Below are positions 2,935-52,588 of a stretch of DNA of 64,000 bases, piece by piece. The stretch lies in assembly GCA_030674475.1 (NCBI GenBank), contig JAUSCZ010000041.1, forward strand, positions 3,481 through 67,480, read 5' to 3'. Both the position numbers and the translations under genes were made by a program. Each line of letters opens with the position of its first letter. Position 1 is the first letter of the stretch. The notes beneath the pieces were generated by a model, which was not told the DNA's origin, did no database searches, and worked only from the letters and a program-made list of their open reading frames with translations. The DNA is from Candidatus Omnitrophota bacterium. GTDB lineage: Bacteria > Omnitrophota > Gorgyraeia > Gygaellales > UBA12090.

Positions 2935-4187
2935 CGTAAATATTCCTCCTTCCGAACCGACGCGTAAACAGTCTTTTCAAGTTCGTTTATGGCTTTGTTA
3001 AGGTTAAACAGCCCTTCGTAGTATTTAATTCTTGTCTCGGCCGCGGTTTTTACCTGATCAAGAAAATTAATAAAATCTATTTCGCCTTCACTATAGCGCA
3101 GGTTTGCCAGACGCAGCAGTTCGTTTGCCTCATCCAACGACTTTTTCAGTAATTCAAGCTGACGGTGAGTAAGCTCCGCGTTTAAATAAGCCTCGAAAAC
3201 ACTAAAAGCAAGTTCTCTTTTTGCCGCCTGGGTTTTCGCAATCTGGGCGTCTTTCTCGGCTTGGGCTTTTTTAACTTCCCCTTGATTTAGATTCCAGAAA
3301 GGAACACTAAAACCCACCACCAGACTTGAGTCATTCTCATATTCTTCGGTTGTCCTTTGAAACCCGACAAAAGGAGACGGTAGGCGGGAAAGCTTTTCTT
3401 TGGTCAGATTCGCGGCCTTTAAATTTAGAGCCAAATCCTCGGATTTAATCGCGGGGCTTTTAGAAAAGGCTTCTTGGGTTAATTCCTGAAGATCGAGCCG
3501 CAATTCCTCATCCTTAAGCTCCTCTTCTATTTCAAAAAGGTTATCCATCGCGCGGCCTAAAAGCAGGTTAAGCCTCGCCTTGTTTATTTTTAACTCTTTT
3601 TCCGCGAATAAATAAGAATTCTCCGCCTCAAAAAGCGCTATCTTTGCCCTCTGAACGTCATTTTTAAGCGCCTGACCGGATTGGAAACGCTGCTGTACCC
3701 GGCTGAAAAACTGCCGCAGGATATTAAGGTTTTCGTCTGCCAATTCCAGTTCTTTTTTATTTAAAATTATCCGGGAGTAAACCTCTCTCGCCTCGGCATA
3801 CACTTGCGACCAGACGGATTTAACTAACTCCTGCTGTAGTAATACTTGATTTCGCGCTATTTTGCTTTTTGCCCCGCGCACGCCCGGCGGATCAAATTCC
3901 TGCCTGACTTCAAGGCTGTCAAGATTTGTTTTACGCTCACCTGCTTCGTTCTTTTTCAATCCCCCTATTTCAAACTCGGCCTCCGGATTGGAAAATGTCC
4001 GCGCGGTTATTAAATCGCCTTTGGCCGCGTCAACGGCTTTCTTGGCTTCTACGATGCGAGGATTAAATTCAAAAGCCAATGACAAGGCTTTCTCTAAAGT
4101 TAACGGTTCCTCAGCCTGCGCCATCTTAGGAATACTACTTACAATAAATGCTATTATCGTGATGATACTTCGTATCTTCTTGTTCAT
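2931..4187 (-). CDS. TolC-like outer-membrane efflux factor (CzcC/CusC family)
   Basis: ORF 2931..4268. The likely true start is the internal ATG at 4185-4187 (MNKKIRSIITIIAFIVSS..., signal peptide). The coiled-coil-rich two-repeat OEP layout fits the family. It is the first gene of the tripartite efflux operon. Confidence 0.75.
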   Translation of the reverse strand: MNKKIRSIITIIAFIVSSIPKMAQAEEPLTLEKALSLAFEFNPRIVEAKKAVDAAKGDLITARTFSNPEAEFEIGGLKKNEAGERKTNLDSLEVRQEFDPPGVRGAKSKIARNQVLLQQELVKSVWSQVYAEAREVYSRIILNKKELELADENLNILRQFFSRVQQRFQSGQALKNDVQRAKIALFEAENSYLFAEKELKINKARLNLLLGRAMDNLFEIEEELKDEELRLDLQELTQEAFSKSPAIKSEDLALNLKAANLTKEKLSRLPSPFVGFQRTTEEYENDSSLVVGFSVPFWNLNQGEVKKAQAEKDAQIAKTQAAKRELAFSVFEAYLNAELTHRQLELLKKSLDEANELLRLANLRYSEGEIDFINFLDQVKTAAETRIKYYEGLFNLNKAINELEKTVYASVRKEEYLR

Positions 4188-5905: not shown

Positions 5906-7096
5906 TTAAATAAGCGTTGCAATAAATTTCTCAATTCTATTTAATCCCTCAACAATATTCTCCATAGAAGTAGCGTATGAGAGCCGTATATAGCTATCAT
6001 CTCCGAAGACACCTCCGGGAACCACCGCGACATGAGCGGATTGCAGAAGCGCATCCGTTAAATCCATGGAATTAGCTATTTTCCTGCCGCTAATACCCTT
6101 ACTTAAGATATTGGCTATATTTATCCAGCAATAAAAAGCACCCTGCGGCTTTATCGTGCGCAGGCCCTTTATTGAATTCACCCTATTTACCATAAAATCG
6201 CGTCTTTTCTTAAACTCCGCCACCATCTTAGTCAAATCGCCCTGATTACCGTTCAATGCCTCTACGCTGGCGGCCTGAGCAATTGAGGTTGGATTAGAGG
6301 TGGAATGATCCTGGAGATTTGACATTGCCTGAATAATCTCCTTTGGCCCGGCGCAATAACCGATGCGCCAGCCGGTCATAGAATAGGCCTTAGAAACCCC
6401 GTTTACCACCATGGTTTTTTTCTTCATCTCTTCATCCAGAGACGCGATACTGACATGCCCCTCATCATAAATTACCTTCTCGTAGATCTCATCGGAAAGA
6501 CAGTAAATTCCGGACTTGAGGATAATTTTACTTAATTCCCTGAGCTCCTTCTCACTATACACCATCCCTGTGGGATTAGAGGGAGAGTTAAGGATAAGCA
6601 GTTTGGTTTTAAGATTTATCGCGCTCTCCAATTGTCCCGGGGTTATCTTGAAATTTGTTTCTTGCGTAGTATTGAGGATAACGGCTTTTGCCCCCGCAAC
6701 CCTCACAATCTCCGGATAACTCACCCAATAAGGCGAGGGCAAAATCACTTCATCGCCATCCCCGCACAATGCCACCACCGCGTTAAATATAGAGTGTTTT
6801 GCCCCGCAGGAGACAAGTATTTCCTCGGCGCTATAGTCCAGCGCGTTATCTTTTTTGAACTTTACGCGGATAGCATCTTTTAACTCTTTCGTTCCGCCAG
6901 TGGGCGTATATTTAGTAAATCCTTTATCAATTGCCTTTTTGGCGGCTTCTTTGATATTAACCGGCGTATCAAAATCCGGCTCGCCCGCGCCAAAACCGAT
7001 AACGTTAATCCCTTCCGCCTGCATTTTCTTTGCTTTGGCAGTTATGCTTAACGTGGGCGATGGGCTGATTTGACTTATTCTCCTTGATATTAACAT
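5906..7096 (-). CDS. Class-I PLP-dependent aminotransferase (aspartate aminotransferase-like)
   Basis: 396 aa, with GEPDFDTP near the N-terminus and the SKAYSMTGWRIGY lysine motif typical of AspB-type aminotransferases. Confidence 0.8.
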   Translation of the reverse strand: MLISRRISQISPSPTLSITAKAKKMQAEGINVIGFGAGEPDFDTPVNIKEAAKKAIDKGFTKYTPTGGTKELKDAIRVKFKKDNALDYSAEEILVSCGAKHSIFNAVVALCGDGDEVILPSPYWVSYPEIVRVAGAKAVILNTTQETNFKITPGQLESAINLKTKLLILNSPSNPTGMVYSEKELRELSKIILKSGIYCLSDEIYEKVIYDEGHVSIASLDEEMKKKTMVVNGVSKAYSMTGWRIGYCAGPKEIIQAMSNLQDHSTSNPTSIAQAASVEALNGNQGDLTKMVAEFKKRRDFMVNRVNSIKGLRTIKPQGAFYCWINIANILSKGISGRKIANSMDLTDALLQSAHVAVVPGGVFGDDSYIRLSYATSMENIVEGLNRIEKFIATLI

Positions 7097-7288
7097 TGTT
7101 TAACCTCCATTTTTTAATAAATTAGTTTATCCTATTATGGTTTACCCTCGCAGGAGGCAGGTCGGAAGCGATATAGCGCCTCAAATGTCCTTATCGTCGT
7201 CTGGTCATCATACTTAAGATTCGCAGCATAAAGACTACCAAAAGAATCAGTAAAATAATGATTAAGATGCGTATCATTAGCGTTCCTA

Positions 7289-8182
7289 TTACTTTTTAGC
7301 CGGTTCGCTTATCGGTAAGTGGGATTTTTCCAAATATTTCAGCAGATCGGAATCCGCGTCCAAAACAATCGTGGTGCCCGCGCCCAGTGAGCGCTCGTAA
7401 GCTTCAAGGCGCCGCAAGAAAGAATAAAATTCCGGATCTTTCTCGTAGGCCGAAGCGTAAATCGCCGTGGCCTGGGCGTCCCCCTCACCCATTAACTTCT
7501 GGGCTTGTTCGTAACTCTTGGCTAAAACGATTTGCGCTTCTTTATTAACATTGGCTCGAATCTCGCGAGCCTGCTCTTCGCCTTCCGCCCGGTACTTTTT
7601 GGCGATGCGCTGCCGCTCCGCCTGCATCCTGGCGTAAACACTGGCCTGGACCTCTCTTGGCAAATCAAGCCGCTTAATGCGAACGTCGATGAGTTCAATA
7701 CCGAACTGCTGCTTCACCGATACGCGGGCATCCTGGCTTACAGCTTGAACAATCGCCTCGCGCTGTTCCCGGACAAAATCAATAAAAGTGCGCTTGCCGA
7801 TCTCTTCCCTTAGACGTCCGGATACCACATCATTTAATCGGATCAAGGCCCCTGCTTCGGTCCGAACCGTGCGGTAAAACTCCAGCGGGTCCGTGATACG
7901 CCACCGTGAAATGTGATCCACTACGACCCGCTTCTTATCCGAGGTCAGATATTCAACCGCCTGCGCGTCCGATGAAAGCACTCGCTTGTCAAAACGCTGC
8001 AAGCTGTGAATAAAAGGAACTTTTATGTAAAGACCGGGTTCACGCACAGTGCGCATGGGTTGACCGAACATCGTGACAATCGCTTGTTCGCGCTCATCAA
8101 CGATGTAGAAAATATTTGATACGGCTAAGAGGGCGATATAGCCCGCTATTAAAAACAGTAATTTGAGTGATTTGTTTTTCAC
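7289..8182 (-). CDS. hflC: HflC (SPFH/band-7 protease modulator)
   Basis: 297 aa with an N-terminal TM and an SPFH domain. It overlaps the upstream HflK gene by 4 nt. Confidence 0.8.
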   Translation of the reverse strand: MKNKSLKLLFLIAGYIALLAVSNIFYIVDEREQAIVTMFGQPMRTVREPGLYIKVPFIHSLQRFDKRVLSSDAQAVEYLTSDKKRVVVDHISRWRITDPLEFYRTVRTEAGALIRLNDVVSGRLREEIGKRTFIDFVREQREAIVQAVSQDARVSVKQQFGIELIDVRIKRLDLPREVQASVYARMQAERQRIAKKYRAEGEEQAREIRANVNKEAQIVLAKSYEQAQKLMGEGDAQATAIYASAYEKDPEFYSFLRRLEAYERSLGAGTTIVLDADSDLLKYLEKSHLPISEPAKK

Positions 8183-22303: not shown

Positions 22304-22379
22304 GTCATTCCCGTAATCTTTTAGCGGGAATCCAAAAATGAGTTTATCTGGATGCCCGACTAAAACATTCGGGCATGAC
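22304..22379. mobile_element. MITE-like element with gtcattcccg ... cgggcatgac terminal inverted repeats (family P2, copy X)
   Basis: gtcattcccgtaatcttttagcgggaatcca...ggatgcccgactaaaacattcgggcatgac. Same ends and internal hairpins as 47243..47345. Confidence 0.65.
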
Positions 22380-42316: not shown

Positions 42317-42637
42317 TTATTCTATACTGATATCCCCTTTTAGGCAAAACATATTTTTCATCCCCTTCTCAAGCTCAAGCAACTGCTCCTTGGCCTTGCG
42401 GCCCCGCGAATACCCGCCGATATCTCCGTTAGATTTTACCACCCGATGACAAGGGATCACTAACGGATAAGGGTTATTCTTTAAAGCCGTCCCTACCGCC
42501 CTTACCGCCTGAGGCGAACCAATACGTCTGGCAACCCAGGAATAACTGCGCGTTGAGCCAAAAGGAATCTTGAGTGCCGCCTCCCACACCCGCAGCTGAA
42601 AAGCACTAAAACGAATACTATCCGCCTTTTTCTTCAT
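42317..42637 (-). CDS. ogt: Methylated-DNA-protein-cysteine methyltransferase (Ogt/MGMT DNA-binding domain only)
   Basis: 106 aa with the PCHRV active-site motif (VIPCHRVV). Confidence 0.8.
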   Translation of the reverse strand: MKKKADSIRFSAFQLRVWEAALKIPFGSTRSYSWVARRIGSPQAVRAVGTALKNNPYPLVIPCHRVVKSNGDIGGYSRGRKAKEQLLELEKGMKNMFCLKGDISIE

Positions 42638-43853
42638 TAAGAAATCTCTTTTTTCTCAATAAGCGGTGATACTTCAAAGCAAAGCGGTGAGACTCATCCC
42701 GGATACATTGAAGCAAGCGCAGAGCCGGGGAATTATTCTTCAGCCTTATCGGCCTGGGAGTAAAAAGGGTATATATCTCTTCTTCTCTTTTAGCTAAGCT
42801 TACAATGGGAATAATTAATCCCAAATCCTCTAATTCCTTTTTAGCCGCGCAAAGCTGGCCCCGGCCTCCGTCTACCAGGATTAAATCCGGCAAAGGCAAA
42901 TTCTCCTCCTTAAGCCGCGAGTACCGCCTATGCACGGCCTCAGCCATCATCTTATAATCATCGCTCTGCTTAACTGTCTTAATCCGGAAGCGGCGGTAAT
43001 TATCCTTATCAGCTAAACCATTATAAAAAGATACCATTGAAGCGGTGGCCTGTCTACCTAAAATATTAGAAACATCAAAAGCCTCTATTCTGCGCGGTAT
43101 AACCGGGAGCCTCAAAACTTCCCTTAACTCGCTAAGCGCTGACTCCGTGTTATACAAAGATGGCTTGAAGGTATTTAAAGCAATCATCTTATCCCGTAAC
43201 AGTGCCGCTTCTTCAAACTTCCGCTCTTTGGCTTTCTGCCGCATTTCCCGGGATAACTCCTTAGCCAACTCCTCGTTCTTGCCTTCCAGGATCAGGCTGA
43301 TTTGCTTTATGGTTTTGGCGTAATCGCTCTTACTGATTTTCCCGATACAAGGAGCAGGTGAAAGCTTTATACGATAATACATACAGGCTTTTTTGGGAAG
43401 CACCGGACAGGAACGGTAGGGAAAATCGCGGCGGATAATCTTTAACGCTTCTCTCAATAAGCCGGCGCTGATATAGGGGCCGAAATATTGAGCGCCGTCG
43501 TCCTCCCGTTTACGGGTAACATAAATCGCGGGAAATTCCTCATTGGTGATCTTGACTAAAGGAAAACTCTTATCATCCCGAAGCGAGACGTTATATTTCG
43601 GCTTATGCTCTTTGATAAGGCTTGCCTCTAATAAAAGCGCCATACTTTCGCTGGCTGTGGTCCTATATTCAATATCAACCACATTCATCATAAGGCGCAG
43701 GGTCTTTGCCGAAAGCCCGCGCGCCAGATAACTGCTCAGGCGTTTTCGAAGCGAAAGCGCTTTACCGATATAAATAATCCTGCAGGATGAGTCCTTCATT
43801 AAATACACACCCGGAGAATCCGGAAATAGGCTTATTTTTTCCTTAATATCCAT
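42618..43853 (-). CDS. uvrC: Excinuclease ABC subunit C-like protein (GIY-YIG + UvrC core, lacks C-terminal HhH2)
   Basis: True start MDIKEKISLFPDSPGVYLMKD...IIYIGKA (GIY-YIG) at 43851-43853. The ORF track extends it 45 codons into the duplicated junction repeat. The LILVDGGRGQL motif of the UvrC endonuclease domain is present. Confidence 0.75.
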   Translation of the reverse strand: MDIKEKISLFPDSPGVYLMKDSSCRIIYIGKALSLRKRLSSYLARGLSAKTLRLMMNVVDIEYRTTASESMALLLEASLIKEHKPKYNVSLRDDKSFPLVKITNEEFPAIYVTRKREDDGAQYFGPYISAGLLREALKIIRRDFPYRSCPVLPKKACMYYRIKLSPAPCIGKISKSDYAKTIKQISLILEGKNEELAKELSREMRQKAKERKFEEAALLRDKMIALNTFKPSLYNTESALSELREVLRLPVIPRRIEAFDVSNILGRQATASMVSFYNGLADKDNYRRFRIKTVKQSDDYKMMAEAVHRRYSRLKEENLPLPDLILVDGGRGQLCAAKKELEDLGLIIPIVSLAKREEEIYTLFTPRPIRLKNNSPALRLLQCIRDESHRFALKYHRLLRKKRFLNEEKGG

Positions 43854-43886
43854 TGCATGACCTTTTTGATTTATGATTTCGGGGGA
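43806..43886. repeat. Left junction repeat of the inserted island (about 85% identical to 51021..51092); contains the genuine uvrC start
   Basis: cacacccggagaatccggaaataggcttattttttccttaatatccattgcatgacctttttgatttatgatttcg aligned against cacgccggctgaatccggagaaaggcttattttttccttaatatccattgaatgacctttttgatttcg. Confidence 0.8.
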
Positions 43887-43983
43887 CACGATAGTTATTG
43901 AGCTTTGCATTTGTAATGGGAATGACAGAGGCTCCGGCTGCGTCGGAGATAAAGGAAAGATCGCTCCTATTAGTTTCGCAAAG

Positions 43984-44102
43984 CTCAATAATTATTGATT
44001 TTATTATTCGATCCCGAATTTATTTTCTTCAAAGGTATTCCTAATATGTTTTCCCATGCCTGGAAAGTAACCATCAAATTTCAAGACTTAACTCTTTTCT
44101 CC
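43984..44102. repeat. Island modular repeat, copy A (right two-thirds of the ~170-bp unit)
   Basis: aattattgattttattattcgatcccgaatttattttcttcaaa...gcctggaaagtaaccatcaaatttcaagacttaac. Shared with 48340..48472. The ORF-track entry 43995..44321 lies on it and is spurious. Confidence 0.8.
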
Positions 44103-44221
44103 CTATTATTATATATTTCGTTTTTTGTGTCTAACGATAAAGTTAAGCCGCCATTTTCCGCAGAGCAAAACGACGCGGGAAATGGCGGCTTCAACGCTTT
44201 GTTAGATGGTAATTTATTGTT

Positions 44222-44422
44222 TTATTCGATATCTATCTCTTTTTTTACGTCATTGAACGAAGTGGTAGGAATATCGGCTTCTTTTGATTTAGCGTCCCGC
44301 AGTGCTTTTAGAGCTTCGTAATCTTCAAGCTCTTCCTGAATTTGGACGAATTCCTCATAAGGCAATACGACGAATTCTTTTTTTCCATCTTTTTCTAAGA
44401 TTTTTGTATGTAACGATACCAT
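44222..44422 (-). CDS. Phd/YefM-type antitoxin
   Basis: 66 aa. KEFVVLPYEEFVQIQEELEDYEALKALRDAKS resembles YefM/Phd. Located 12 nt downstream of the RelE/ParE toxin gene. Confidence 0.6.
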   Translation of the reverse strand: MVSLHTKILEKDGKKEFVVLPYEEFVQIQEELEDYEALKALRDAKSKEADIPTTSFNDVKKEIDIE

Positions 44423-44433
44423 TTTCTTCCTCC

Positions 44434-44682
44434 TTATCGATATGCTTCTTTTCTATGCATAATACGGTAGATAATTATTTTATCCTTTTCTGTTTCAAAA
44501 AGAACCCTATAGTCACCTGCTCGCAGGCGATATTCGGGAGAATAATTAGTTAATTTTTTGACATCGCCTTGTAAATCATCGGATAAAACCTCAACTTTTG
44601 AAAATATCAATTGTAATGTTTTCTTATCGATCGATTTGCAGTCTTTTATAGCTTTGGGTTTAAACTCAACTTTATACTTCAT
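44434..44682 (-). CDS. RelE/ParE-family type II toxin
   Basis: 82 aa. YRLRAGDYRVLFETEKDKIIIYRIMHRKEAY is the characteristic C-terminal RelE/ParE motif. Confidence 0.7.
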   Translation of the reverse strand: MKYKVEFKPKAIKDCKSIDKKTLQLIFSKVEVLSDDLQGDVKKLTNYSPEYRLRAGDYRVLFETEKDKIIIYRIMHRKEAYR

Positions 44683-44866
44683 AAGATAATTATACCATAT
44701 TTTGGTGTAATTTCAGTATTTTCATCTAACGAAAAGCTCAGCGTTGCCAACCCCGGGCATTCGCTGGAGCGTCTTGTTAGGAATTTTTACTTTCTTCTAT
44801 TTCTTTTTCTAATCTCAGTTTTATGTCTCTCCTCTAAACCCGCGCCCGTGCTTACTGCCTCAAATA

Positions 44867-45274
44867 TTAGGGTTCGATGGGTACAATTCGCAGCATATCC
44901 TTCGTAAGCTCAGTCACTCTATATGACTCCGTTATATCACCTTTAATTATCTGAAGGATACTTTTGCGCGGATCAAATCTCCACTTTCCAGACTTGAAAT
45001 GGTGAGCATCGTCGGGAGACAAATAATACCATTCACAATCACCATTTTTGTAGAAGATATATTGCATTCTGAATCGGCTTCCCGGAAATTCTTTGAAATC
45101 TTTCGGGCGGTATATTGAGTCTTTATCAGCTTGCTGTTGTTCCTCGAACGAATGGACCCAGTGCTGATATAAGTACTCTGGCGTCTTGGGTTTTGGAGAG
45201 GCGGATGGTGGGCTGTCTTCTGCCAATAAATATGATCCGCCAATGAGCATCACGATAAGTAGCAATATTTTCAT
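44867..45274 (-). CDS. Hypothetical secreted protein
   Basis: 135 aa with a signal peptide (MKILLLIVMLIGGSYLLA). No family recognised. Confidence 0.4.
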   Translation of the reverse strand: MKILLLIVMLIGGSYLLAEDSPPSASPKPKTPEYLYQHWVHSFEEQQQADKDSIYRPKDFKEFPGSRFRMQYIFYKNGDCEWYYLSPDDAHHFKSGKWRFDPRKSILQIIKGDITESYRVTELTKDMLRIVPIEP

Positions 45275-45282
45275 ATTTTGAT

Positions 45283-45440
45283 TTCAGCCTAACGAAATGG
45301 CTAACCCGCCGGGGCATCCACCATCGCAAAAAACTTTAGGGGTCAAACCCGGACATTAGACATTATCTCATCTTTTCCTTAAAAATTACACAATAGTTAT
45401 TGATTTTATTATTCAATTCCGAATTTCTTTTCTTCAAAGC
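45283..45440. repeat. Island modular repeat, copy B (left two-thirds of the unit)
   Basis: ...ctttaggggtcaaacccggacattagacattatctcatcttttccttaaaaattacacaatagttattgattttattattcaattccgaatttcttttcttcaaa. The upstream part (tttcagcctaacgaaatggctaacccgccggggcat) recurs at 44713..44790. Confidence 0.8.
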
Positions 45441-45573
45441 TAAAAACTCTCGCGCTTTATCACTACACCATTGCCTTAACCCACCCGAATAATCATTAAT
45501 TGTCTTCTATTCATCATCCCGCGTATTGTTTTTCAGACCAACCATACATTGCTCAAATGTTTTGATTATGAAT

Positions 45574-46380
45574 TCAGGAGGGCGTAAGGCCTAAATTTTT
45601 TAGTTTACTTATTTCATTCTGATTATATACCCCACTTTTTTCAAGAAGAAATCCTATTGCCTGATGATAAGGATAAACAAAAGCTAACTTCTTTAAAGTT
45701 CTTATTAGATTTTCAATAGAAATCCCTTCTTTTGCTAGTTTATAACAATTTAATATTTCTAATATACCATTCGTATATGATGGCCGAACAACAATATCAA
45801 TTAATGTTCTTTCTAAATTTGTTACTAATACCTTATTTTGATTGAAATATGCTTCTATAACACCGCACATATTAGTATTTTGGCCATTCAATAAATAAAC
45901 CTTATATTCCTTAAAATTAGCTATGTTGGTTGTGACTCGCTGTGTTCTTGAAAATGCAAAATCAATTCTCCCTTGGGATAAGGAAGAGGAATAATTGGAC
46001 GCGGAACTTCTTCTTTGCTCAAAATTTACATAAATTTTGTCTGGTGGGTCATTAATTAACTTGTGAATATATAGCGCTGTTCGGTGTGTATAATATAGAT
46101 TTTTTATAAATGAGAGACAGTATACCCATACGGAAACATCTCCCCAGCTAAAAAGAGAATATTCACGGTTAGGGAATTTAATTGAGGTCTTCTTTAAGTC
46201 TGTACGTTTTAGTAATAATTCTAAAAACTTGAAAGCTGTCATGGTGTTAGGTAGGTCCCATTCCAATCTTTTATCTTCTAGAATGTTCACTATTTCGGTA
46301 AAGGTAAAGATTGATTTCTTGGCTTGTTTGAAATAGTTTTTAATTACATCAAGTTTTGTCTCAAATTTTGAAATTTTCAT
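45574..46380 (-). CDS. Uncharacterised 268-aa protein (possible Abi-like/HEPN-like defense component)
   Basis: No transmembrane or signal features. It contains an R-x5-H segment (HRTALYIH) compatible with, but not proving, a HEPN Rx4-6H motif. It stands alone between island repeat B and the hipB promoter region. Confidence 0.3.
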   Translation of the reverse strand: MKISKFETKLDVIKNYFKQAKKSIFTFTEIVNILEDKRLEWDLPNTMTAFKFLELLLKRTDLKKTSIKFPNREYSLFSWGDVSVWVYCLSFIKNLYYTHRTALYIHKLINDPPDKIYVNFEQRRSSASNYSSSLSQGRIDFAFSRTQRVTTNIANFKEYKVYLLNGQNTNMCGVIEAYFNQNKVLVTNLERTLIDIVVRPSYTNGILEILNCYKLAKEGISIENLIRTLKKLAFVYPYHQAIGFLLEKSGVYNQNEISKLKNLGLTPS

Positions 46381-46638
46381 TTTTTAGATAAGTTTTAAGT
46401 TAAAATTGAGCTTAACTCCTACCGGTATAGTATAAATACTATATCGGTAGAAAGTCAAGTATTTTCTCATTTTCTTCAGTTTAATTATACCCTTTAAGGT
46501 GTAATTATCAAATTTTTTAAATAAAACATTGGCTATTATGCCCTTTAAGGACTATTTGTTTATAATAAAACCCTATCAGGTATAAAAATTTAAAAAATAC
46601 TTGCAATTATACCCGAAAGGTGGTATATTCTTATCACC

Positions 46639-46890
46639 ATGGCCCACTTTCCAATTAATATACAGATTAAGAATCTACGAAAAAAGCTGGGTTTAACTCA
46701 AGTCGATTTCGCGAAAAGAGCAGGGGTAGGTTTGCGTTTCTTAAGAGAGCTGGAAGAAGGCAAGCCTACGGTGCGGTTAGATAAGCTTAATCAAGTTTTG
46801 GATTTCTTGGGTGTTCATCTGGAAATAGCGCGCAATGAAAATATAAAATCTGAATGGACAGATAACAACAAACTTGAAGCAGAATTATGA
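46639..46890 (+). CDS. hipB: HipB-like XRE-family HTH antitoxin/regulator
   Basis: 83 aa with an HTH (LRKKLGLTQVDFAKRAGVGLRFLRELEEGK). The stop overlaps the start of the next gene (ATGA). Confidence 0.7.
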   Translation: MAHFPINIQIKNLRKKLGLTQVDFAKRAGVGLRFLRELEEGKPTVRLDKLNQVLDFLGVHLEIARNENIKSEWTDNNKLEAEL

Positions 46891-47210
46891 AAGAACTTAG
46901 AAAAGGGCAGGTTTTTTTCAATAAGGACTTGGCCGGGGACATTAGCGAAACGAAAGACGGCTATCTTTTTGAATATGATAAAGATTTTTTAAAAAAAAAT
47001 ATACCTGTTTCTATGTCGTTACCTCCCAGAGAAGAGCCTTATGAATCTAAAGAATTATTTCCTTTTTTTAAAGGCCTTTTGCCTGAAGGCTGGTATTTAG
47101 ATATTGTTACCGCTACCCAAAAGGTTGATAGGGAAGACTTGTTTGGTATCCTTCTTTGCACTACGAGCGGTGATACCATTGGCGCGGTAACGGTTCGCAA
47201 GATAGAATGA
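46887..47210 (+). CDS. HipS-like protein (HipA N-terminal subdomain homolog)
   Basis: 107 aa. The YLFEYDKDF...PVSMSLPP... pattern matches the HipA N-terminal (Couple_hipA) region, here as a separate ORF in a HipB-HipS-HipT gene order. Confidence 0.6.
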   Translation: MKELRKGQVFFNKDLAGDISETKDGYLFEYDKDFLKKNIPVSMSLPPREEPYESKELFPFFKGLLPEGWYLDIVTATQKVDREDLFGILLCTTSGDTIGAVTVRKIE

Positions 47211-47242
47211 ACATCATTGCTGTCCAGGTTAGCCATTACAGC

Positions 47243-47345
47243 GTCATTCCCGCAATCTTTTAGCGGGAATCCACGACGAGAGTATTTTCTGGATACCCGC
47301 TTTTCCCGCATAGCGGGATCCCGTAAAGCGGGACGCGGGTATGAC
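47243..47345. mobile_element. MITE-like element (family P2, copy Y) inserted between hipS-like and hipT-like genes
   Basis: gtcattcccgcaatcttttagcgggaatcca...ggatacccgc[ttttcccgcatagcgggatcccgtaaagcgggac]gcgggtatgac. Same termini as 22304..22379, with a nested extra hairpin module. Confidence 0.65.
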
Positions 47346-47407
47346 AAATTCAATATCTCAAAATTCCGTTCCAGTCGACAAGTAATAACTAATTTGGACA
47401 CGAGTGA

Positions 47408-48274
47408 ATGAACATAAAACTTATTAAAGAGATGTTTAATACTTCTAAACTGCCGATAATAGATTTCGGCTTGGAAGATGTTTCTCAAAAAGCGCAGAAA
47501 TCGGCGGGGAAGTTATCCATTTCCGGGGTTCAGCCGAAATTATCCATGAAGCTTGATAAGAAAAATAATGCGTTAATTTCTGTTGCTGAAGGCGGAGAAT
47601 ATATTTTAAAACCCCAAACCGTGGCTTTCCCGAATATTCCTGAGAATGAACAGTGTTGTATGGACATAGCGGCGGAGTTTAAGATAGCTGTTCCTCCTCA
47701 TTGTCTCTTGCCTTTAAAAGATAAAAGCTGGGCGTATATTGTGAAAAGATTTGACAGGGAATCAGGCGTGAAAATCCATCAGGAAGAATTCTTTCAAATA
47801 TTAGAATCAGGAAATAAATACCAAGGTTCCGTTGAACAAATTGGGCGTAAATTAAAAGAAATATCTACCGCGCCCGGATATGACGTGCAATTATTTTTTG
47901 AGAGGGTTGTCTTTAATTTTATTATTGGAAACGGAGACGCCCATTTAAAGAACTATTCAATCGCGTATAAGGATAAAGAAACTATCCGCTTAACGCCGGC
48001 CTATGATATGGTATGTTCAAAATTGGTGATTCCGGATGAAGAAGATTCCGCCTTATCTATCAACGCCAAAAAGAATGAACTGAAAAGAGATGATTTTGAT
48101 AAGTTGGCGGAGTATTTAAATATACCGATAAGAATTCGCTATGAAAAATTCGAAAAGAGCTTGATTTTAATGGAAACAATAATTAAAAATTCAAAAATTA
48201 AGCAAGAGATTCAGGAGCGATTTATTAACATCATTAAAGAGCGCTTATCACGTATGAACATAGCGGCAGAATAA
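47408..48274 (+). CDS. HipT/HipA-like serine/threonine kinase toxin (kinase core)
   Basis: 288 aa with the ISGVQPKLSM P-loop-like motif and the catalytic GNGDAHLKN (D-x-H-x-K-N) motif of HipA-family kinases. Confidence 0.7.
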   Translation: MNIKLIKEMFNTSKLPIIDFGLEDVSQKAQKSAGKLSISGVQPKLSMKLDKKNNALISVAEGGEYILKPQTVAFPNIPENEQCCMDIAAEFKIAVPPHCLLPLKDKSWAYIVKRFDRESGVKIHQEEFFQILESGNKYQGSVEQIGRKLKEISTAPGYDVQLFFERVVFNFIIGNGDAHLKNYSIAYKDKETIRLTPAYDMVCSKLVIPDEEDSALSINAKKNELKRDDFDKLAEYLNIPIRIRYEKFEKSLILMETIIKNSKIKQEIQERFINIIKERLSRMNIAAE

Positions 48275-48283
48275 AGAAAAGTT

Positions 48284-48472
48284 TAAAAAGCTTTAAGGGC
48301 CACCCGGACATTAGATACCATCTAATCTTTTCCTTAAAAATTAGAGACAATACTTAATTATTGATTTTATTATTCGATCCCAAATTTTTTCTTCAAAAAT
48401 ATCCCTTATTTGCTTTCCCCTGCCTGGAAAGTAACCATCAAGTTTCAAGACTTAACCTTTTTCTTTTCTCCG
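48284..48472. repeat. Island modular repeat, copy C (full-length ~170-190-bp unit)
   Basis: ctttaagggccacccggacattagataccatctaatcttttccttaaaaattagagacaatacttaattattgattttattattcgatcccaaatttttt...gcctggaaagtaaccatcaagtttcaagacttaacc. The ORF-track entry 48361..48591 is spurious. Confidence 0.8.
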
Positions 48473-48833
48473 GCATAGATGCTTTTAGCATCTCAAACAG
48501 CCTGTCTTTGATATTCAGCGATTCCCGCTCCGCTTTTTGGATATTCTTATTTTTTACCATTTCCCGGTCTTTCTTTCAACAATTTCTCTAGGTGATAACT
48601 TTGCATCTTGTTAGGCTTCGATTTACTGTTGAACCACCTATTAACTGTAACGCGGAAAATCTGCGATAGGTTTCTTACTTTCTAAGATATTTATGATCAA
48701 AATAAAAAGGATAAATTTTATCCCTTAACAAGATGGTTCCAATTGCTATGAGAGCTATACCACAATATGTTAAGAATGTTCCCATGTCTTCCTTTTCTCC
48801 GTTTCGAACTCTCCGCGCGTGTTCTCTTTACGC

Positions 48834-49475
48834 CTAAGAAGTTAAGAATCGATTTAATTCATTTACTAAAAAATGCACAGTCGTAGAAGGTCTCCTTAAG
48901 CTAGCTGTATGAATAGGCAGATATTGTGACATTAGTTTTTCAGCGTTTCTTATGCCATCATTCTGTTTGCTTAGAATAAGATCATACATTTCTATGCTAT
49001 TCTTTGTATAGGGCTTCCCTAATAACTCACTTAGTCTTTTGATGTATTCGGGACGATTCCTAGCATTTTGCGTATAATGGAAATGAAGCAAATACCATAA
49101 TTCAAAACACTCATTTGAGTAAGCAATATTGATTTTGTGTTTTCTTGCTAGTGAAATAGCCTTTTCAAAATTTTTATCCGGGTTGTCGTCTTTATCAAAC
49201 ACACACCAAATTTGGTCAAATTTTATACCATATCTTGCAGCCGCTTCTTTATGCTTTATTGTTTTTTCTACAAGAGACACTGTGTTATCGCCTATCCCAA
49301 ATATTTCATCTTCTACCTGAGAGGAAGTTAAACGAAAACTTCGAAAATAATTTGGTTCAGTTTTTTCGCCCTCACAGATAATTAGAAACGTTTCTCGCAC
49401 AGGTTTGACAGCGACCCTTCGCTTAAGAATTCCCGACTGTTTTCTTTTCCAAAACGCGCTATCCGGCTCTTTCAT
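48834..49475 (-). CDS. RloB-like protein (AbiLii-like; Toprim-like)
   Basis: 213 aa with the N-terminal FLIICEGEKTEPNYF signature of the RloB family. It overlaps the upstream ATPase gene by 4 nt. Confidence 0.65.
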   Translation of the reverse strand: MKEPDSAFWKRKQSGILKRRVAVKPVRETFLIICEGEKTEPNYFRSFRLTSSQVEDEIFGIGDNTVSLVEKTIKHKEAAARYGIKFDQIWCVFDKDDNPDKNFEKAISLARKHKINIAYSNECFELWYLLHFHYTQNARNRPEYIKRLSELLGKPYTKNSIEMYDLILSKQNDGIRNAEKLMSQYLPIHTASLRRPSTTVHFLVNELNRFLTS

Positions 49476-50722
49476 CTTTTAAATAAAGAATTGGTTCCTT
49501 TTACAACTGGGATCGCTCCGTATTTTCCTGCTATATAATCTTTCTCAAAAGATGCGTCATTCCTAACCTTGTATTCTACTAAAGAGTATAAATCTGTGGC
49601 TCCGTATTTATTTTTTTCGGTAAGCCATATTTGATCTCTCCTAAAAATGGCCCGGTTAAATAAATTGGTGTTATGCGAAACAAAAACTAGTTGAGCATTA
49701 TTAGGGTTATTCTCCCTGGAATTAAATAACTCTATTAAGAATTTAATTAAAATAGGATGCAATTTGGCATCCAGTTCATCTATTACTAACACATTGCCTT
49801 TTTTTAGCGTATCTAATATTGGAGCTGAGATAGCAAAGAATTTTTTTGTGCCAGCCGATTCTTCGAAATCAAAATCAAATTTTTCTAACTGAAAGGTTTT
49901 ATTATCAATATCGTACTTCTTATGAAAAGCATTAATTTTAAAGTCTACAAGCTCATCATCGGGTTTAATTTTGGTTTTTATTCCATCGGGCAGATCCTCA
50001 ATCCTTATTTTTGTTTCCTCAATACCAACATCCTCTATGCCTAAATCCGCAAATTTCGTAAATTTCATAATTTCATTTTTGAATTCAGTATCTTGAAGTT
50101 TTCTTAATGTAAATTCTAAATAACTAGTATCTGTTAAGGCGGTAAGGACCTTAAATTTTTTAAACCACTGGAATATTTTTCCGGCTATCGGACCATTAAA
50201 TTGAGCAACAACGGATAGAAAAAGTGCATTATCCCTGGTTTTATCTTTAAGCCCCTTGCCTTCCTTGAAATGGCCCCCAATAGTAAAATTATCAGGCTCT
50301 CTTATAAATAATCTTGTTTCTTTTCTTATTGGAACATAGAAAAGCCACTCTCTATGTATTTTTTCTTTATCGGCCTGAAAGCCATATCGGTATCTAATTC
50401 TTTCATGCATAAAAATAATTTCAAAGGTGCTGGGTTGATTTTCTGTTTCAGTACTAAGCTTAAATCTAGTAACTTTTATTTTGTCGGTAACATCTTTTGT
50501 CGAAAACAGAACAAAGGATTTTACAAAACGCATTGCTTGGATTAAATTAGACTTTCCGCTAGCATTTGCGCCATAAATAACAGCGTTCTTCAACAGCCTT
50601 AATTTATCTTTGGCAATAAATGTATTCGTTTCTTCATGCTCTTTCCTTGCTGTTGCCATCAGACTTATGGTGGCTATGTCTTTAAATGATTTAAAGTTGC
50701 CTACGCTAAATTGTATTAGCAT
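49472..50722 (-). CDS. AAA_21/OLD-like ATPase (AbiLi-like)
   Basis: 416 aa. Walker A GANASGKSN at the N-terminus, with a distant Walker B/D-loop (VLVIDELDAKLHP), typical of ABC/OLD-type AAA_21 ATPases paired with RloB. Confidence 0.65.
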   Translation of the reverse strand: MLIQFSVGNFKSFKDIATISLMATARKEHEETNTFIAKDKLRLLKNAVIYGANASGKSNLIQAMRFVKSFVLFSTKDVTDKIKVTRFKLSTETENQPSTFEIIFMHERIRYRYGFQADKEKIHREWLFYVPIRKETRLFIREPDNFTIGGHFKEGKGLKDKTRDNALFLSVVAQFNGPIAGKIFQWFKKFKVLTALTDTSYLEFTLRKLQDTEFKNEIMKFTKFADLGIEDVGIEETKIRIEDLPDGIKTKIKPDDELVDFKINAFHKKYDIDNKTFQLEKFDFDFEESAGTKKFFAISAPILDTLKKGNVLVIDELDAKLHPILIKFLIELFNSRENNPNNAQLVFVSHNTNLFNRAIFRRDQIWLTEKNKYGATDLYSLVEYKVRNDASFEKDYIAGKYGAIPVVKGTNSLFKR

Positions 50723-51020
50723 GATTCGCTCCTTTTCCAGTATTACGTGTCATTAATTATATAATAGATGGCTAATTTCACCTAAAATTGCAAAAAATGA
50801 GTTTATAGTCTACTTTTTTAAGTATATAACAAATATACATCAAAAATTTAAAATGTCAACATTTTTTGTGAAATATTCTCAAAAAATAAGTTTATTTATA
50901 TATGCGCGGCTAGATAGCCGTCCTAATTTCTATGTGAATTCAAGAGGTAGGAGGTTTCAGGGTTATTCCGCGAGAGGCTCGGCATGCCACACCACCGAGT
51001 TTTGCAACAGTCCCAAGATG

Positions 51021-51092
51021 CACGCCGGCTGAATCCGGAGAAAGGCTTATTTTTTCCTTAATATCCATTGAATGACCTTTTTGATTTCGGCT
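51021..51092. repeat. Right junction repeat of the inserted island; contains the genuine murJ 3' end plus a degenerate uvrC-start pseudo-ORF
   Basis: Partner of 43806..43886. In this copy the uvrC-like frame reads MDIKEKISLSPDSAGVHLGTV... and diverges after 16 aa. Confidence 0.75.
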
Positions 51093-52588
51093 AAATCCAG
51101 GATAAGCGCGCCTAAGATAAAAATTAGCAGGCCGGAGAGCGCCGCGGCGCTTACTCTCACTAAAGGCGGGGCGCTAATTAGACACCGGCCATAAACATAA
51201 AAACTGGCCCCGGAGGCTATCAAAGAAAAAAAGAGAATCTTGGCGAAAACCTGGCTTAAATACCGGCCGTTAAGCGGGCCGATCTTTTTTCTTAAAGAAT
51301 GAAAAAGGATAAAAAAATTAATGCCTCCGGATAAGCTGGTAGCTAAAGCCAAGCCCTTTAATTTTAAAGGATACATCAGGATAAGATTAAAAACGATATT
51401 GACTAAAAGCGAGGCCGCGGTTATCTTAAGCGGGGTTTTGGTATCCTTAAGAGAAAAGAATCCCGAAACCAGCACCTTGTTGGCGGCATAAAAACTCAAG
51501 GATAAGGCGTAAAACAAAAGCGCTCCGGAGGTAATCTCGGTGGAATAGGCGTCAAATCTCCCCCCTTCAAACAAGGCCGCGACTATCGGCTTAGCCAAAA
51601 CGGCTATTAGGGCGGAAACCGGAAGCATAATCAAAAAAACAGCAATTAAGGAAAAATTCAGGGTCTTCTTAAAATTATCCAGATTATCCTCCAGCGCCTG
51701 ATGAGATAAAGACGGTAAGGCCGCCTGGGCAATGGCTATCCCGAATATGCCTAAGGGAAATTGAAAAATCCGGTTGGCAAAATATAAGGCGGAAATCGCT
51801 CCCTGGCCTACGATATGAGCCAGAGAACCGAGTATCGTATCCACAAAGAGATTAAGCTGATAAATACAAGAACTGAATATCCGGGGGAGAATCAGTTTTC
51901 CGATTTGCCTGATCCCGGGATGCCGCAACTCCAGTGCCGGACGGTAGCGGAAGCCTTTTTTATAAAGCATCGGTATCTGCACCGCTAACTGTCCTACCCC
52001 CCCGGCCAAGACTCCCAAAGCCAGGCCTAGTGTTCCCTCTCCGTAAGCAACAGCAAAAACGATTATAGAAATATTCAAAAGGCAGGGGGCCAAGGCTGAG
52101 ATAGTGAAAGACTTAAGAGAATTCAACACCCCCATACAATAGGCGCTCAAGGCAATCAATAGTAAATAAGGATAGATAATTCTGGTCAGCCGGACTGTTT
52201 CCTGGAACTTTAACGCGTCAGAGCTAAAACCGGGGGCAATCAGGCGCACAATCCAGGGAGAAAACACTACCCCCAGGATAGTAAGCGCCGCCAGGATGAC
52301 CAGGAGGATATTCAATAAGCAATTAGCCAAATGCCAGAATTCCTCTTTTGATTTTTTGGCCGCGTATTCGCTGAATACCGGGACAAAGGCCGCGTTCACC
52401 GCTCCCTCGGCCACCATATCCCGCAAGAGATTAGGAATCCTGAAGGCCACCACAAAGGCCTGAGAATACATACCCGTGCCGAAGAACCGGGCAATCACCA
52501 CATCCCGGATAAAACCGAGTATCCGCGAGCACAAAGTAAAAAAACCGATTAAGGAAGCCGATCGGGCAATTTCTTTATTGGTTGACAT
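51047..52588 (-). CDS. murJ: Lipid II flippase MurJ
   Basis: 513 aa with 14 predicted TM helices, the N-terminal MurJ pattern (FFTLCSRILGFIRDVVIARFFG) and MOP-superfamily features. Confidence 0.85.
   Translation of the reverse strand: MSTNKEIARSASLIGFFTLCSRILGFIRDVVIARFFGTGMYSQAFVVAFRIPNLLRDMVAEGAVNAAFVPVFSEYAAKKSKEEFWHLANCLLNILLVILAALTILGVVFSPWIVRLIAPGFSSDALKFQETVRLTRIIYPYLLLIALSAYCMGVLNSLKSFTISALAPCLLNISIIVFAVAYGEGTLGLALGVLAGGVGQLAVQIPMLYKKGFRYRPALELRHPGIRQIGKLILPRIFSSCIYQLNLFVDTILGSLAHIVGQGAISALYFANRIFQFPLGIFGIAIAQAALPSLSHQALEDNLDNFKKTLNFSLIAVFLIMLPVSALIAVLAKPIVAALFEGGRFDAYSTEITSGALLFYALSLSFYAANKVLVSGFFSLKDTKTPLKITAASLLVNIVFNLILMYPLKLKGLALATSLSGGINFFILFHSLRKKIGPLNGRYLSQVFAKILFFSLIASGASFYVYGRCLISAPPLVRVSAAALSGLLIFILGALILDLAEIKKVIQWILRKK

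Follow-up and report, generated by a model that had tools for sequence, protein, structure and literature searches.

The 64,000-nucleotide stretch of Omnitrophota DNA analysed here (the window) carries, at the junction between murJ and uvrC, an island of defence and toxin–antitoxin (TA) genes in which a repeat of about 170-180 nt, which we term X, recurs between gene modules. Comparison of the island with its counterparts in related strains leads us to view X as a lineage-specific, unstructured and essentially non-coding islet backbone, which would persist, in the form of direct repeats, where the parts of an accreted and repeatedly rearranged defence island are joined, an interpretation whose chances we put at about even. 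A reading of the window made from its letters alone (the sequence-only reading) had likened the repeats to attC sites 'in logic though not in sequence'. The repeats are, however, adjoined by canonical attC sites, which, unlike X, show nucleotide-precise boundaries. It is these sites, rather than X, that would confer nucleotide-precise mobility on the cassettes of the island.

The repeat unit X

Three copies of X, designated A, B and C, were confirmed by self-BLAST of the island against the 64-kb window, and a repeat search and a MAFFT alignment agreed with this result. Copies C and A are 88% identical over 112 nt (48355-48464 versus 43989-44100; E 9e-35), C and B 81% over 117 nt (48285-48397 versus 45328-45438; E 2e-23) and A and B 90% over 52 nt (43986-44037 versus 45391-45442; E 1e-13); self-BLAST revealed no further copy in the 64-kb window. 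All three have the same orientation, on the minus strand, in which almost all genes of the window also run. The unit comprises three parts, of which x1 (about 64-76 nt) starts GGAGAAAAG and contains the start of a 26-codon open reading frame (ORF), x2 (about 52 nt) reads TTTGAAGAAAAG...GAATAATAAAATCAATAA..., and x3 (about 50 nt) reads TAATTTTTAAGGAAAAGATGAGATAATGTCTAATGTC...CCCCTAAAG. Coordinates and the parts present in each copy are given in Table 1. Over 37 nt the x3 of copy B is identical to that of two related loci, L105 and L026.

The sequence-only reading had correctly placed the repeats at module boundaries, and repeats, or pieces of them, stand at module junctions in related strains too. 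Its gene labels also hold: ParE/RelB, lipoprotein, HipB-HipS-HipT and RloB plus AAA_21 are supported by Pfam, and PADLOC identifies the last pair as AbiLii/AbiLi. The extent assigned to copy B, however, requires revision. While 45334-45442 is X, the left ~45 nt (45283-45333) belong to an attC site truncated at its 5' end, of which they form the right arm. Similarly, the segment 44713-44790, taken for a further repeat fragment, is actually attC2 (44724-44782) together with the leader of the ParE cassette; it resembles 45283-45330 and 44110-44150 in local alignment because all three share the attC core arm CTAACGAAA. Two plus-strand ORFs, 43995-44321 and 48361-48591, begin at the same TTG within x2 and overlap attC1/relB or non-coding DNA, which is consistent with the proposal that both are artefacts of the repeats.

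The proposal that the repeats themselves are recombination sites of attC or Xer logic fared less well, as X displays no significant fold, no core-site pattern and no match to an attC model. Folding of intact X with RNA parameters on both strands gave z scores of +0.6, -1.0 and +0.8, none of which indicates significant structure. No terminal inverted repeats of X were found, an Rfam cmscan of 43000-52000 at E <= 1 returned 0 matches, and the attC model described below, run with filters off over the whole window, produced no hit at E <= 10 in any copy of X. As the unit is unstructured and without terminal inverted repeats, it is neither a hairpin-type site, a structured RNA nor the end of an insertion sequence (IS) or miniature inverted-repeat transposable element (MITE). 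Sites of the Xer/dif type, the logic exploited by integrative mobile elements exploiting Xer (IMEX), span about 28 bp and consist of two 11-bp inverted arms around a 6-bp spacer. Inspection of x2 by eye for this layout (GATCGAATAAT-AAAATC-AATAATTAAGT) showed arms that are complementary at about 5/11 positions, which is not convincing. Judged from the loci compared, the boundaries of the X copies are better explained as rearrangement breakpoints.

In the collections searched (the window, GTDB representative genomes, JGI metagenomes, viral contigs and related loci) X was seen in this island lineage only. Exact-pattern scanning of the GTDB representatives detected no x2 core, as the only close genome there, L026, is without x2. 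Seven x2-core matches in JGI metagenomes were rejected as chance occurrences of an AT-rich 22-mer inside unrelated coding sequences, and scans of viral contigs gave 0 hits for x3 and 3 for x1, all by chance.

Canonical attC sites beside the repeats

As attC sites are conserved in structure, not in sequence, a covariance model (R1) was built for their detection. The starting point was the 60-nt attC of aadA1, which is 100% identical in ~2000 plasmids, where it lies directly 3' of aadA1 beside intI1 (R100/Tn21). Training sites were taken from a dozen class-1 integron arrays on plasmids, and the eight that were structurally consistent were aligned; the model thus rests on about 5.2 effective sequences, includes none from the window, and its E-values are rough. 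The dfrA1, dfrA15 and gcuCupin sites were dropped for structural inconsistency in an 11-sequence alignment, and the OXA-2, GES-5 and aacA34 junctions, which presented no clean attC site, were unused. The modelled structure consists of R box, spacer, 3-bp stem, extrahelical base and 6-bp stem.

Applied with filters off to both strands of the 64 kb, the model yielded exactly two significant hits, attC1 and attC2 (Table 1), the next best scoring 10 bits (E 2.7). In both, an extrahelical base in the 5' arm fits the bulge column of the model (attC1, GTT[G]AAGCCGCC/GGCGGCTT-AAC; attC2, GCT[C]CAGCG/CGCTG-AGC), the base being a G in attC1, whose opposite strand scores only 8.5 bits. This location of the extrahelical base identifies the minus strand of the window as the top strand of both sites. 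Both sites immediately follow, on the 3' side, a gene unit of the same orientation, which is the lipoprotein gene for attC2 and the ParE/RelB pair for attC1. On the evidence of sequence and predicted structure the two are canonical attC sites, close to the aadA1/cmlA5 type; BLAST of attC1 against plasmids gave chance hits only. In 78 kb of related genomes outside the island the model found no significant hit.

An attC cluster without an integron integrase (CALIN) is defined in IntegronFinder as two or more same-strand attC sites separated by less than 4 kb, with no intI in the vicinity (PMC4889954). attC1 and attC2, 520 nt apart on the minus strand, form such a cluster, accompanied by one truncated site. 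No integron integrase was detected among the plausible ORFs of the window, those of 300-350 aa being housekeeping genes (no six-frame search for an intI pseudogene was made), and none occurs in any island variant seen. The attC cassettes would presumably depend on an integron integrase that is encoded elsewhere or is now lost.

The truncated site forms the 5' boundary of the lipoprotein cassette. We had considered 45288-45340/45362 as an intact third attC, but this segment showed no fold and no model hit, and was re-read as a truncated right arm after examination of L026 and L111; L026 and others contain an intact attC (37.3 bits) where the window has the truncated one. The remaining arm, GGCGGGTTAGC-CATTTC-GTTAGGC, parallels the corresponding arm of attC1, GGCGGCTTAAC-TTTATC-GTTAGAC.

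The lipoprotein cassette provides the clearest view of cassette boundaries, as it occurs behind four different upstream contexts with homology beginning each time at the R' core, (C/A)-(G/A)TTAGG. These contexts are the truncated attC of the window; a 54-nt attC (37.3 bits) after a DUF4145 gene in L026, L103, L105-L109 and L113; a 71-nt attC (17.6 bits, E 0.02) after an HSDR_N gene in L116 and L117; and, in L111, the right arm of the 71-nt attC fused to a truncated AbiLi gene. A boundary at the R' core is, in this comparison, the footprint expected of integron cassette recombination at G/TT (the slash marking the crossover point).

In both truncated sites (45288-45333 of the window and ~4510-4545 of L111) the deletion end-points lie within the hairpin loop and only the right arm is left. 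The two deletions, which arose independently and affect different types of attC in different strains, suggest that attC hairpins may act as deletion hotspots.

Variants of the island in related strains

All comparisons were made with metagenome contigs of unknown completeness. The island has a GC content of 0.32-0.36, against ~0.45 in its flanks. In two relatives (L023 and L024; UvrC 78% and 71% identical) the site is empty and murJ abuts uvrC. L026, which belongs to UBA12090 and is ~95% identical in the flanks, carries a different island of 2.7 kb at this position, and its homology to the window resumes at 43888 and 51000. From murJ, a piece of x3 comes first and a DUF4145 gene next; an attC (37.3 bits, E 8e-8) then precedes the same lipoprotein gene (95% identical), after which come x1, DUF4160/DUF2442, a degenerate attC (~6868-6938), x3 fused to hipT remnants and, finally, uvrC. 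Upstream of uvrC in this strain (7285-7335) there is also a palindrome in which the core motifs are reversed (CCCCGTTAGAAAA...TTTTCTAACGGGG), an arrangement that is not attC-like.

Homologues of the lipoprotein and of the x1 ORF led to 15 more groundwater metagenome contigs, in all of which the homologous region lies at murJ/uvrC. Among the cargo are genes for a Schlafen-like ATPase and an HSDR_N protein, hipBST in intact form and a 213-aa gene that we term geneZ, with type III restriction-modification (R-M) in the more distant L118. About a dozen related strains hold different gene sets at this junction, in line with the earlier proposal of a modular island whose content is exchanged, and murJ/uvrC is, from these contigs, a hypervariable defence/TA hotspot.

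Pieces of X occupy junctions in 15 related loci. An intact X of 168 nt is found in L105 and L106, between the stop codon of the lipoprotein gene and a hipT remnant. L026 and L108 are 99.7% identical to these two strains in the flanks, but contain ~700 nt at the x1/x2 boundary (an S24' remnant, DUF4160, DUF2442 and an attC); this near-isogenic difference inside X points to rearrangement at X and bears out the exchange of gene blocks. The insertion is not clean, as extra nucleotides stand at its flanks and part of x2 is missing, the rest being degenerate. In L103 and L109-L115 geneZ likewise occupies x1/x2, while L116 is again without it. In L103 and L109-L117 the x1 ORF runs in frame into the 40-codon C-terminus of an S24-peptidase-like family. 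The resulting 58-aa ORF of L103 was considered as a real gene, but its homologues share only the C-terminal 40 residues, and it was re-interpreted as a fusion scar. This fusion of the x1 ORF to an unrelated remnant indicates that edges of X are breakpoints. The junction between x3 and the hipT 3' end of copy C, common to L026, L103, L105 and other strains, also appears to be a breakpoint, since no more than the last ~15 nt of x3 accompany the intact hipT of L111. Similarly, because the 3' remnant of geneZ lies just upstream of copy B, this copy probably represents the right half of a former X into which a geneZ-type block had been inserted.

The attC array has, in both lineages, an x3 piece on its upstream side and x1 immediately downstream. 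Relative to X-hipT, the lipoprotein/attC block occupies permuted positions in the window and in the other strains, which also points to rearrangement at X. In the window the block x3(B)-attC'-lipoprotein-attC2-ParE/RelB-attC1-x1(A), where attC' is the truncated site, is flanked by direct copies of x2 that are 90% identical.

The island as a whole is bracketed by a 70-nt direct repeat (D3) whose copies, 89% identical, each duplicate the junction of the murJ 3' end and the uvrC 5' start. L111 contains three copies of D3, and the middle one (3878-3982) is a hybrid consisting of the right end of an island, the core and the left end of an island. It separates a unit with the Schlafen-like gene and intact hipTSB from a second one with AbiLi', lipoprotein, x1...x3 and hipT', both of which end with hipT. 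This hybrid copy is indicated, by its composition, to be a signature of tandem accretion at one attachment site. Of the features expected of a site-specifically integrated island the locus displays flanking direct repeats, empty sites and a tandem hybrid junction; an integrase was seen in no variant.

The island sits in codon ~17 of uvrC and brings a replacement 5' end for the gene. The longest uvrC ORF (42618-43988) starts at a TTG at 43988, in copy A; relatives and the D3 duplicate show that the real start is the ATG at 43853 (MDIKEK...).

Origin of the X copies

In the explanation that we favour, small defence/TA islets would integrate, sometimes in tandem, at murJ/uvrC of this Omnitrophota lineage. 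X and hipBST would constitute the conserved backbone of the islet family, in which intact X adjoins the hipT 3' end. We infer that the copies of X in the window are leftovers of units joined by tandem accretion, which were trimmed by insertions and deletions, the internal D3 copies and parts of X being deleted later. Such a history of joining and trimming would account both for the position of X at module boundaries and for the observation that A, B and C represent different overlapping thirds of the unit. As direct repeats of 50-190 nt, the copies may also serve as substrates for RecA-type recombination or replication slippage, and could thereby delete or duplicate modules, or circularise and re-insert them. 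The x2-flanked block seen in the window is what would be expected if, at x2, an unequal crossover had taken place or a circle had re-inserted. In addition, x2 may contribute a weak outward promoter toward the lipoprotein cassette (copy B) and uvrC (copy A), which the island separates from murJ. As no integrase or recombinase is present in the variants, integration of the island itself could be catalysed in trans, or homology at the junction repeat of 70-100 nt could have driven a single crossover.

Several points weigh against this explanation. Recombination at X is inferred from static comparisons of a small number of metagenome contigs, in which no circular or recombinant junction molecule was observed. 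Several boundaries of X, namely the x1 start (GGAGAAAAG), x1/x2 and the x3 end (...AAAG), fall at identical nucleotides whatever their context, which a site-specific mechanism would also predict, although at least some of these contexts are orthologous and not independent. The window contains only two copies of D3, and thus tandem accretion requires the later loss of internal ones. Conservation of X between lineages, at 82-100%, is like that of the flanking genes, a level that appears neither to support nor to exclude a selected function. The genomes of the lineage compared here are incomplete, and copies of X outside the island, or a distant intI, may exist. Finally, the promoter match is weak.

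Alternative readings of X

It could be argued that X is a promoter or 5'-leader module, in which a sigma-70-type promoter in x2 drives the lipoprotein array from copy B, in the manner of a Pc promoter, and uvrC from copy A; the repetition of X would then reflect selection for the expression of each module. This is compatible with the backbone explanation, and the sequence-only reading had also suggested that the repeats carry promoters. That suggestion holds in so far as TTGAAG-N16-18-AATAAT is found on the minus strand in the x2 of all three copies, and the three share an invariant run of 18 nt that overlaps the -10 element. The gene downstream of copy A, like that downstream of copy B, has the same orientation as the repeat and no obvious promoter of its own, and uvrC would need a new promoter since murJ and uvrC are adjacent or overlapping in relatives with an empty site. 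It is also relevant that integron cassettes seldom carry promoters (PMC4889954). The support is nevertheless weak. The match extends to 9/12 positions only, and the AT-rich island contains 40 such sites where 25 are expected, while the invariant 18-mer is not statistically remarkable at this divergence (estimated p about 0.2). Furthermore, the promoter of copy C would fire antisense into hipT, and L026, L103 and most of the other strains lack the x2 core yet retain the downstream genes. We therefore regard a primary role of X in expression as unlikely.

A second possibility is that X, or its x3 end, provides a double-stranded landing pad of the attI type, at which an integrase encoded in trans inserts attC cassettes or larger modules at the left edge of x1, at x1/x2 and at the x3 end. 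Were this so, the island would represent a three-tier system (junction att, X and attC) that assembles multi-gene defence modules and single-gene cassettes without a resident integrase. The sharp, recurring boundaries of X agree with this proposal, as does the location of the attC arrays, in both lineages, between an upstream x3 piece and a downstream x1. The x3 end of copy B, ...CCCCTAAAG/TT, resembles the crossover of attI1, ...AAAG/TTAGGC. When joined to the sequence that follows attC1 it would yield CCCCTAAAG/TTAGAC, which could plausibly act as a simple site. This x3 end also agrees with the attG consensus G/WT (10.1101/2022.09.11.507474). TT follows the G, however, at only one of the three x3 junctions, and the half attC that comes after the x3 of copy B is the product of no canonical integrase reaction. 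The DUF4160/DUF2442 block at x1/x2, with its extra non-homologous nucleotides and degenerate x2, does not represent a clean insertion, the remnant of x3 beside the intact hipT of L111 marks the x3-hipT junction as a breakpoint, and neither the window nor any island variant contains an integrase. These considerations make the landing pad decidedly improbable.

We also considered whether X is a small-protein gene, x1-x2 encoding a 26-residue peptide (MKLDGCFPGRGKHIRDIFEEKRFGIE) preceded by a GGAG ribosome-binding site, and the repeats being paralogues. L105, L106 and copy A have the 26-codon ORF intact, including its two consecutive stop codons, and in L105 a GGAG precedes the TTG start by 7 nt. 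It is, however, frameshifted in C, truncated in B and fused to an unrelated remnant in most strains. Between A and L105 our count gives ~7-8 non-synonymous and 3-4 synonymous differences (rough dN/dS ~0.65), which provides no clear sign of purifying selection, and the hypothesis leaves x3 unexplained. There is thus very little to commend a coding function for X.

The view that X represents IS or MITE-type ends or remnants has the least to recommend it and is scarcely credible: X is short, multi-copy and non-coding with discrete ends, and a MITE-like insertion does exist between hipS and hipT, but the unit has no terminal inverted repeats, its edges abut unrelated sequence without target-site duplication, no transposase was found in the window or the variants, and the copies are all co-oriented in one island, with none in the other collections searched. 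In accordance with this, neither of the observations that would have spoken against the sequence-only reading was made, as the repeats are not IS ends, no transposase accompanies them and the junction pattern recurs in other genomes.

Relation to known systems

The island combines architecture of known kinds (defence hotspot, tandem island accretion and CALIN), here in a new lineage. Its array resembles a CALIN (Cury et al. 2016, PMC4889954) in that same-strand attC sites each follow a co-oriented gene unit with no intI in 64 kb, the cassette boundary is G/TTAGG across strains, and the TA cassette is typical of chromosomal arrays. It differs in forming part of a larger defence island, which lies between two core genes; the comparison, moreover, applies to the sites beside X and not to X. 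It has been proposed that small CALIN, and single attC sites lacking an integrase (SALIN), arise by secondary-site insertion (Loot et al., 10.1101/2022.09.11.507474), and defence genes are already established as integron cassettes (10.1101/2024.07.02.601719). No report of integrons in Omnitrophota was found in the literature searched, and the data presented here extend attC cassette arrays to this phylum, with canonical attC sites in the absence of a nearby integrase.

With respect to its position, the island belongs with defence-island hotspots, as one site holds AbiL, HipBST, AbiEi, ParE/RelB, a Schlafen-like ATPase, type III R-M or DUF4145 according to strain; it differs in the nesting of three layers of direct repeats (D3, X and attC) within 7 kb. 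Tandem accretion of islands at one attachment site is known, and some islands enter the 5' end of a gene and restore it, such as those that target dusA. Similarly, a junction duplication of ~70 nt brackets the island described here, a hybrid third copy occurs in L111, and a new uvrC 5' end is supplied; related units also share backbone segments, which become internal direct repeats. In contrast to such islands, no recombinase is present in any variant seen and the islets are very small (2.7-7 kb).

X itself recurs at module boundaries, co-oriented with the genes, as attC sites do, but it is without the hairpin, the R''/R' cores and the extrahelical-base architecture, and exceeds the attC sites of the island two- to threefold in length. 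Like repetitive extragenic palindromic sequences and bacterial interspersed mosaic elements (REP/BIME), enterobacterial repetitive intergenic consensus (ERIC) sequences and MITEs, it is short, non-coding and multi-copy. In contrast to these elements it is not palindromic, has no terminal inverted repeats or target-site duplications and, as far as tested, is confined to one island rather than dispersed. At present, X does not amount to a new recombination system.

The locus offers a compact natural case of how defence/TA islands are assembled and reshuffled in an uncultivated phylum, at a junction that accepts islets repeatedly, and its near-isogenic variants let the gain and loss of cassettes be read at nucleotide resolution. 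It also holds a lesson for annotation, as an apparently novel repeat at cassette boundaries can hide an ordinary attC a few bases away.

Other features of the island

Table 1. Features of the island and its borders (positions are those of the window)
Feature	Position	Strand	Description
X copy A	43986..44102	-	x1-x2 only; starts 26 nt past the last attC; followed by hairpin and uvrC
X copy B	45334..45442	-	x2-x3 only; left edge at the x1/x2 boundary; preceded by 3' remnant of geneZ
X copy C	48290..48471	-	complete x1-x2-x3; between RloB-downstream spacer and hipT 3' end
attC1	44129..44207	-	36.7 bits, E 1e-7; DNA fold z = -5.0; 3' of ParE/RelB; R'' ATCTAAC ... R' GTTAGAC
attC2	44724..44782	-	21.9 bits, E 1.3e-3; fold z -2.5 to -2.8; 3' of lipoprotein gene; R'' TCCTAAC ... 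R' GTTAGAT
Truncated attC	45288..45333	-	5'-truncated; right arm GGCGGGTTAGC-CATTTC-GTTAGGC; 5' boundary of lipoprotein cassette
ParE/RelB cassette	44222..44682	-	ParE toxin 44434-44682, RelB/Phd-like antitoxin 44222-44422 (Pfam); bounded by attC2 and attC1
Lipoprotein cassette	44867..45274	-	135 aa; 93-95% identical in other strains, where upstream neighbours differ
Island	43889..51017	.	low GC, inserted at murJ/uvrC junction
D3 left	43803..43872	.	duplicated murJ-3'-end/uvrC-5'-start junction; functional uvrC start 43853
D3 right	51018..51087	.	functional murJ stop (51047) and 17-codon uvrC' pseudo-start
Long hairpin	43891..43995	-	between copy A and uvrC; 31-nt arms; DNA fold z = -3.0
geneZ remnant	45510..45582	-	3' end of 213-aa gene, intact in L109-L115; 98% identical to L103 2688-2741
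AbiEi-like gene	45574..46380	-	268 aa; PADLOC AbiEi E 5e-18; orphan, no AbiEii partner
hipB-hipS-hipT	46639..48274	+	Pfam; 197-nt MITE-like insertion 47211-47407 between hipS and hipT
AbiLi/AbiLii	48834..50722	-	AbiLi (AAA_21) 49472-50722, AbiLii (RloB) 48834-49475; Pfam; PADLOC E 3e-101, 1e-31

Several further features were noted in the island. The long hairpin in the uvrC leader is composed of one arm that equals the end of x2 plus 12 nt and another that is an inverted partial copy of that arm. It is specific to the lineage of the window, L026 having unrelated sequence at this position, and could be an attenuator or a rearrangement palindrome. The geneZ remnant overlaps the stop of the AbiEi-like gene, which thus abuts a deletion scar.

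The 197-nt element in hipBST is GC-rich and lies exactly at the overlapping hipS stop and hipT start, where an 8-bp duplication, GAATGAAC, on its flanks regenerates both codons. It displays imperfect terminal inverted repeats (...GTCCAGGTTAG and ...GTCCAAATTAG), has a partial second copy at 22304-22358 and is absent from the hipBST of L111, which is otherwise 93-94% identical. The element probably uncouples the translation of hipS and hipT.

In the spacer of 360 nt between rloB and copy C there are two small ORFs on the minus strand, 48679-48789, which would specify a 36-aa hydrophobic peptide (MGTFLTYCGIALIAIGTILLRDKIYPFYFDHKYLRK), and 48438-48560, which would specify a basic one of 40 aa. 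The divergent intergenic region between hipB and the AbiEi-like gene (46400-46640) contains at least four inverted motifs of the form TATACC-N6-8-GGTATA (for example at 46484-46506 and 46535-46557), which are likely to be operators for HipB.

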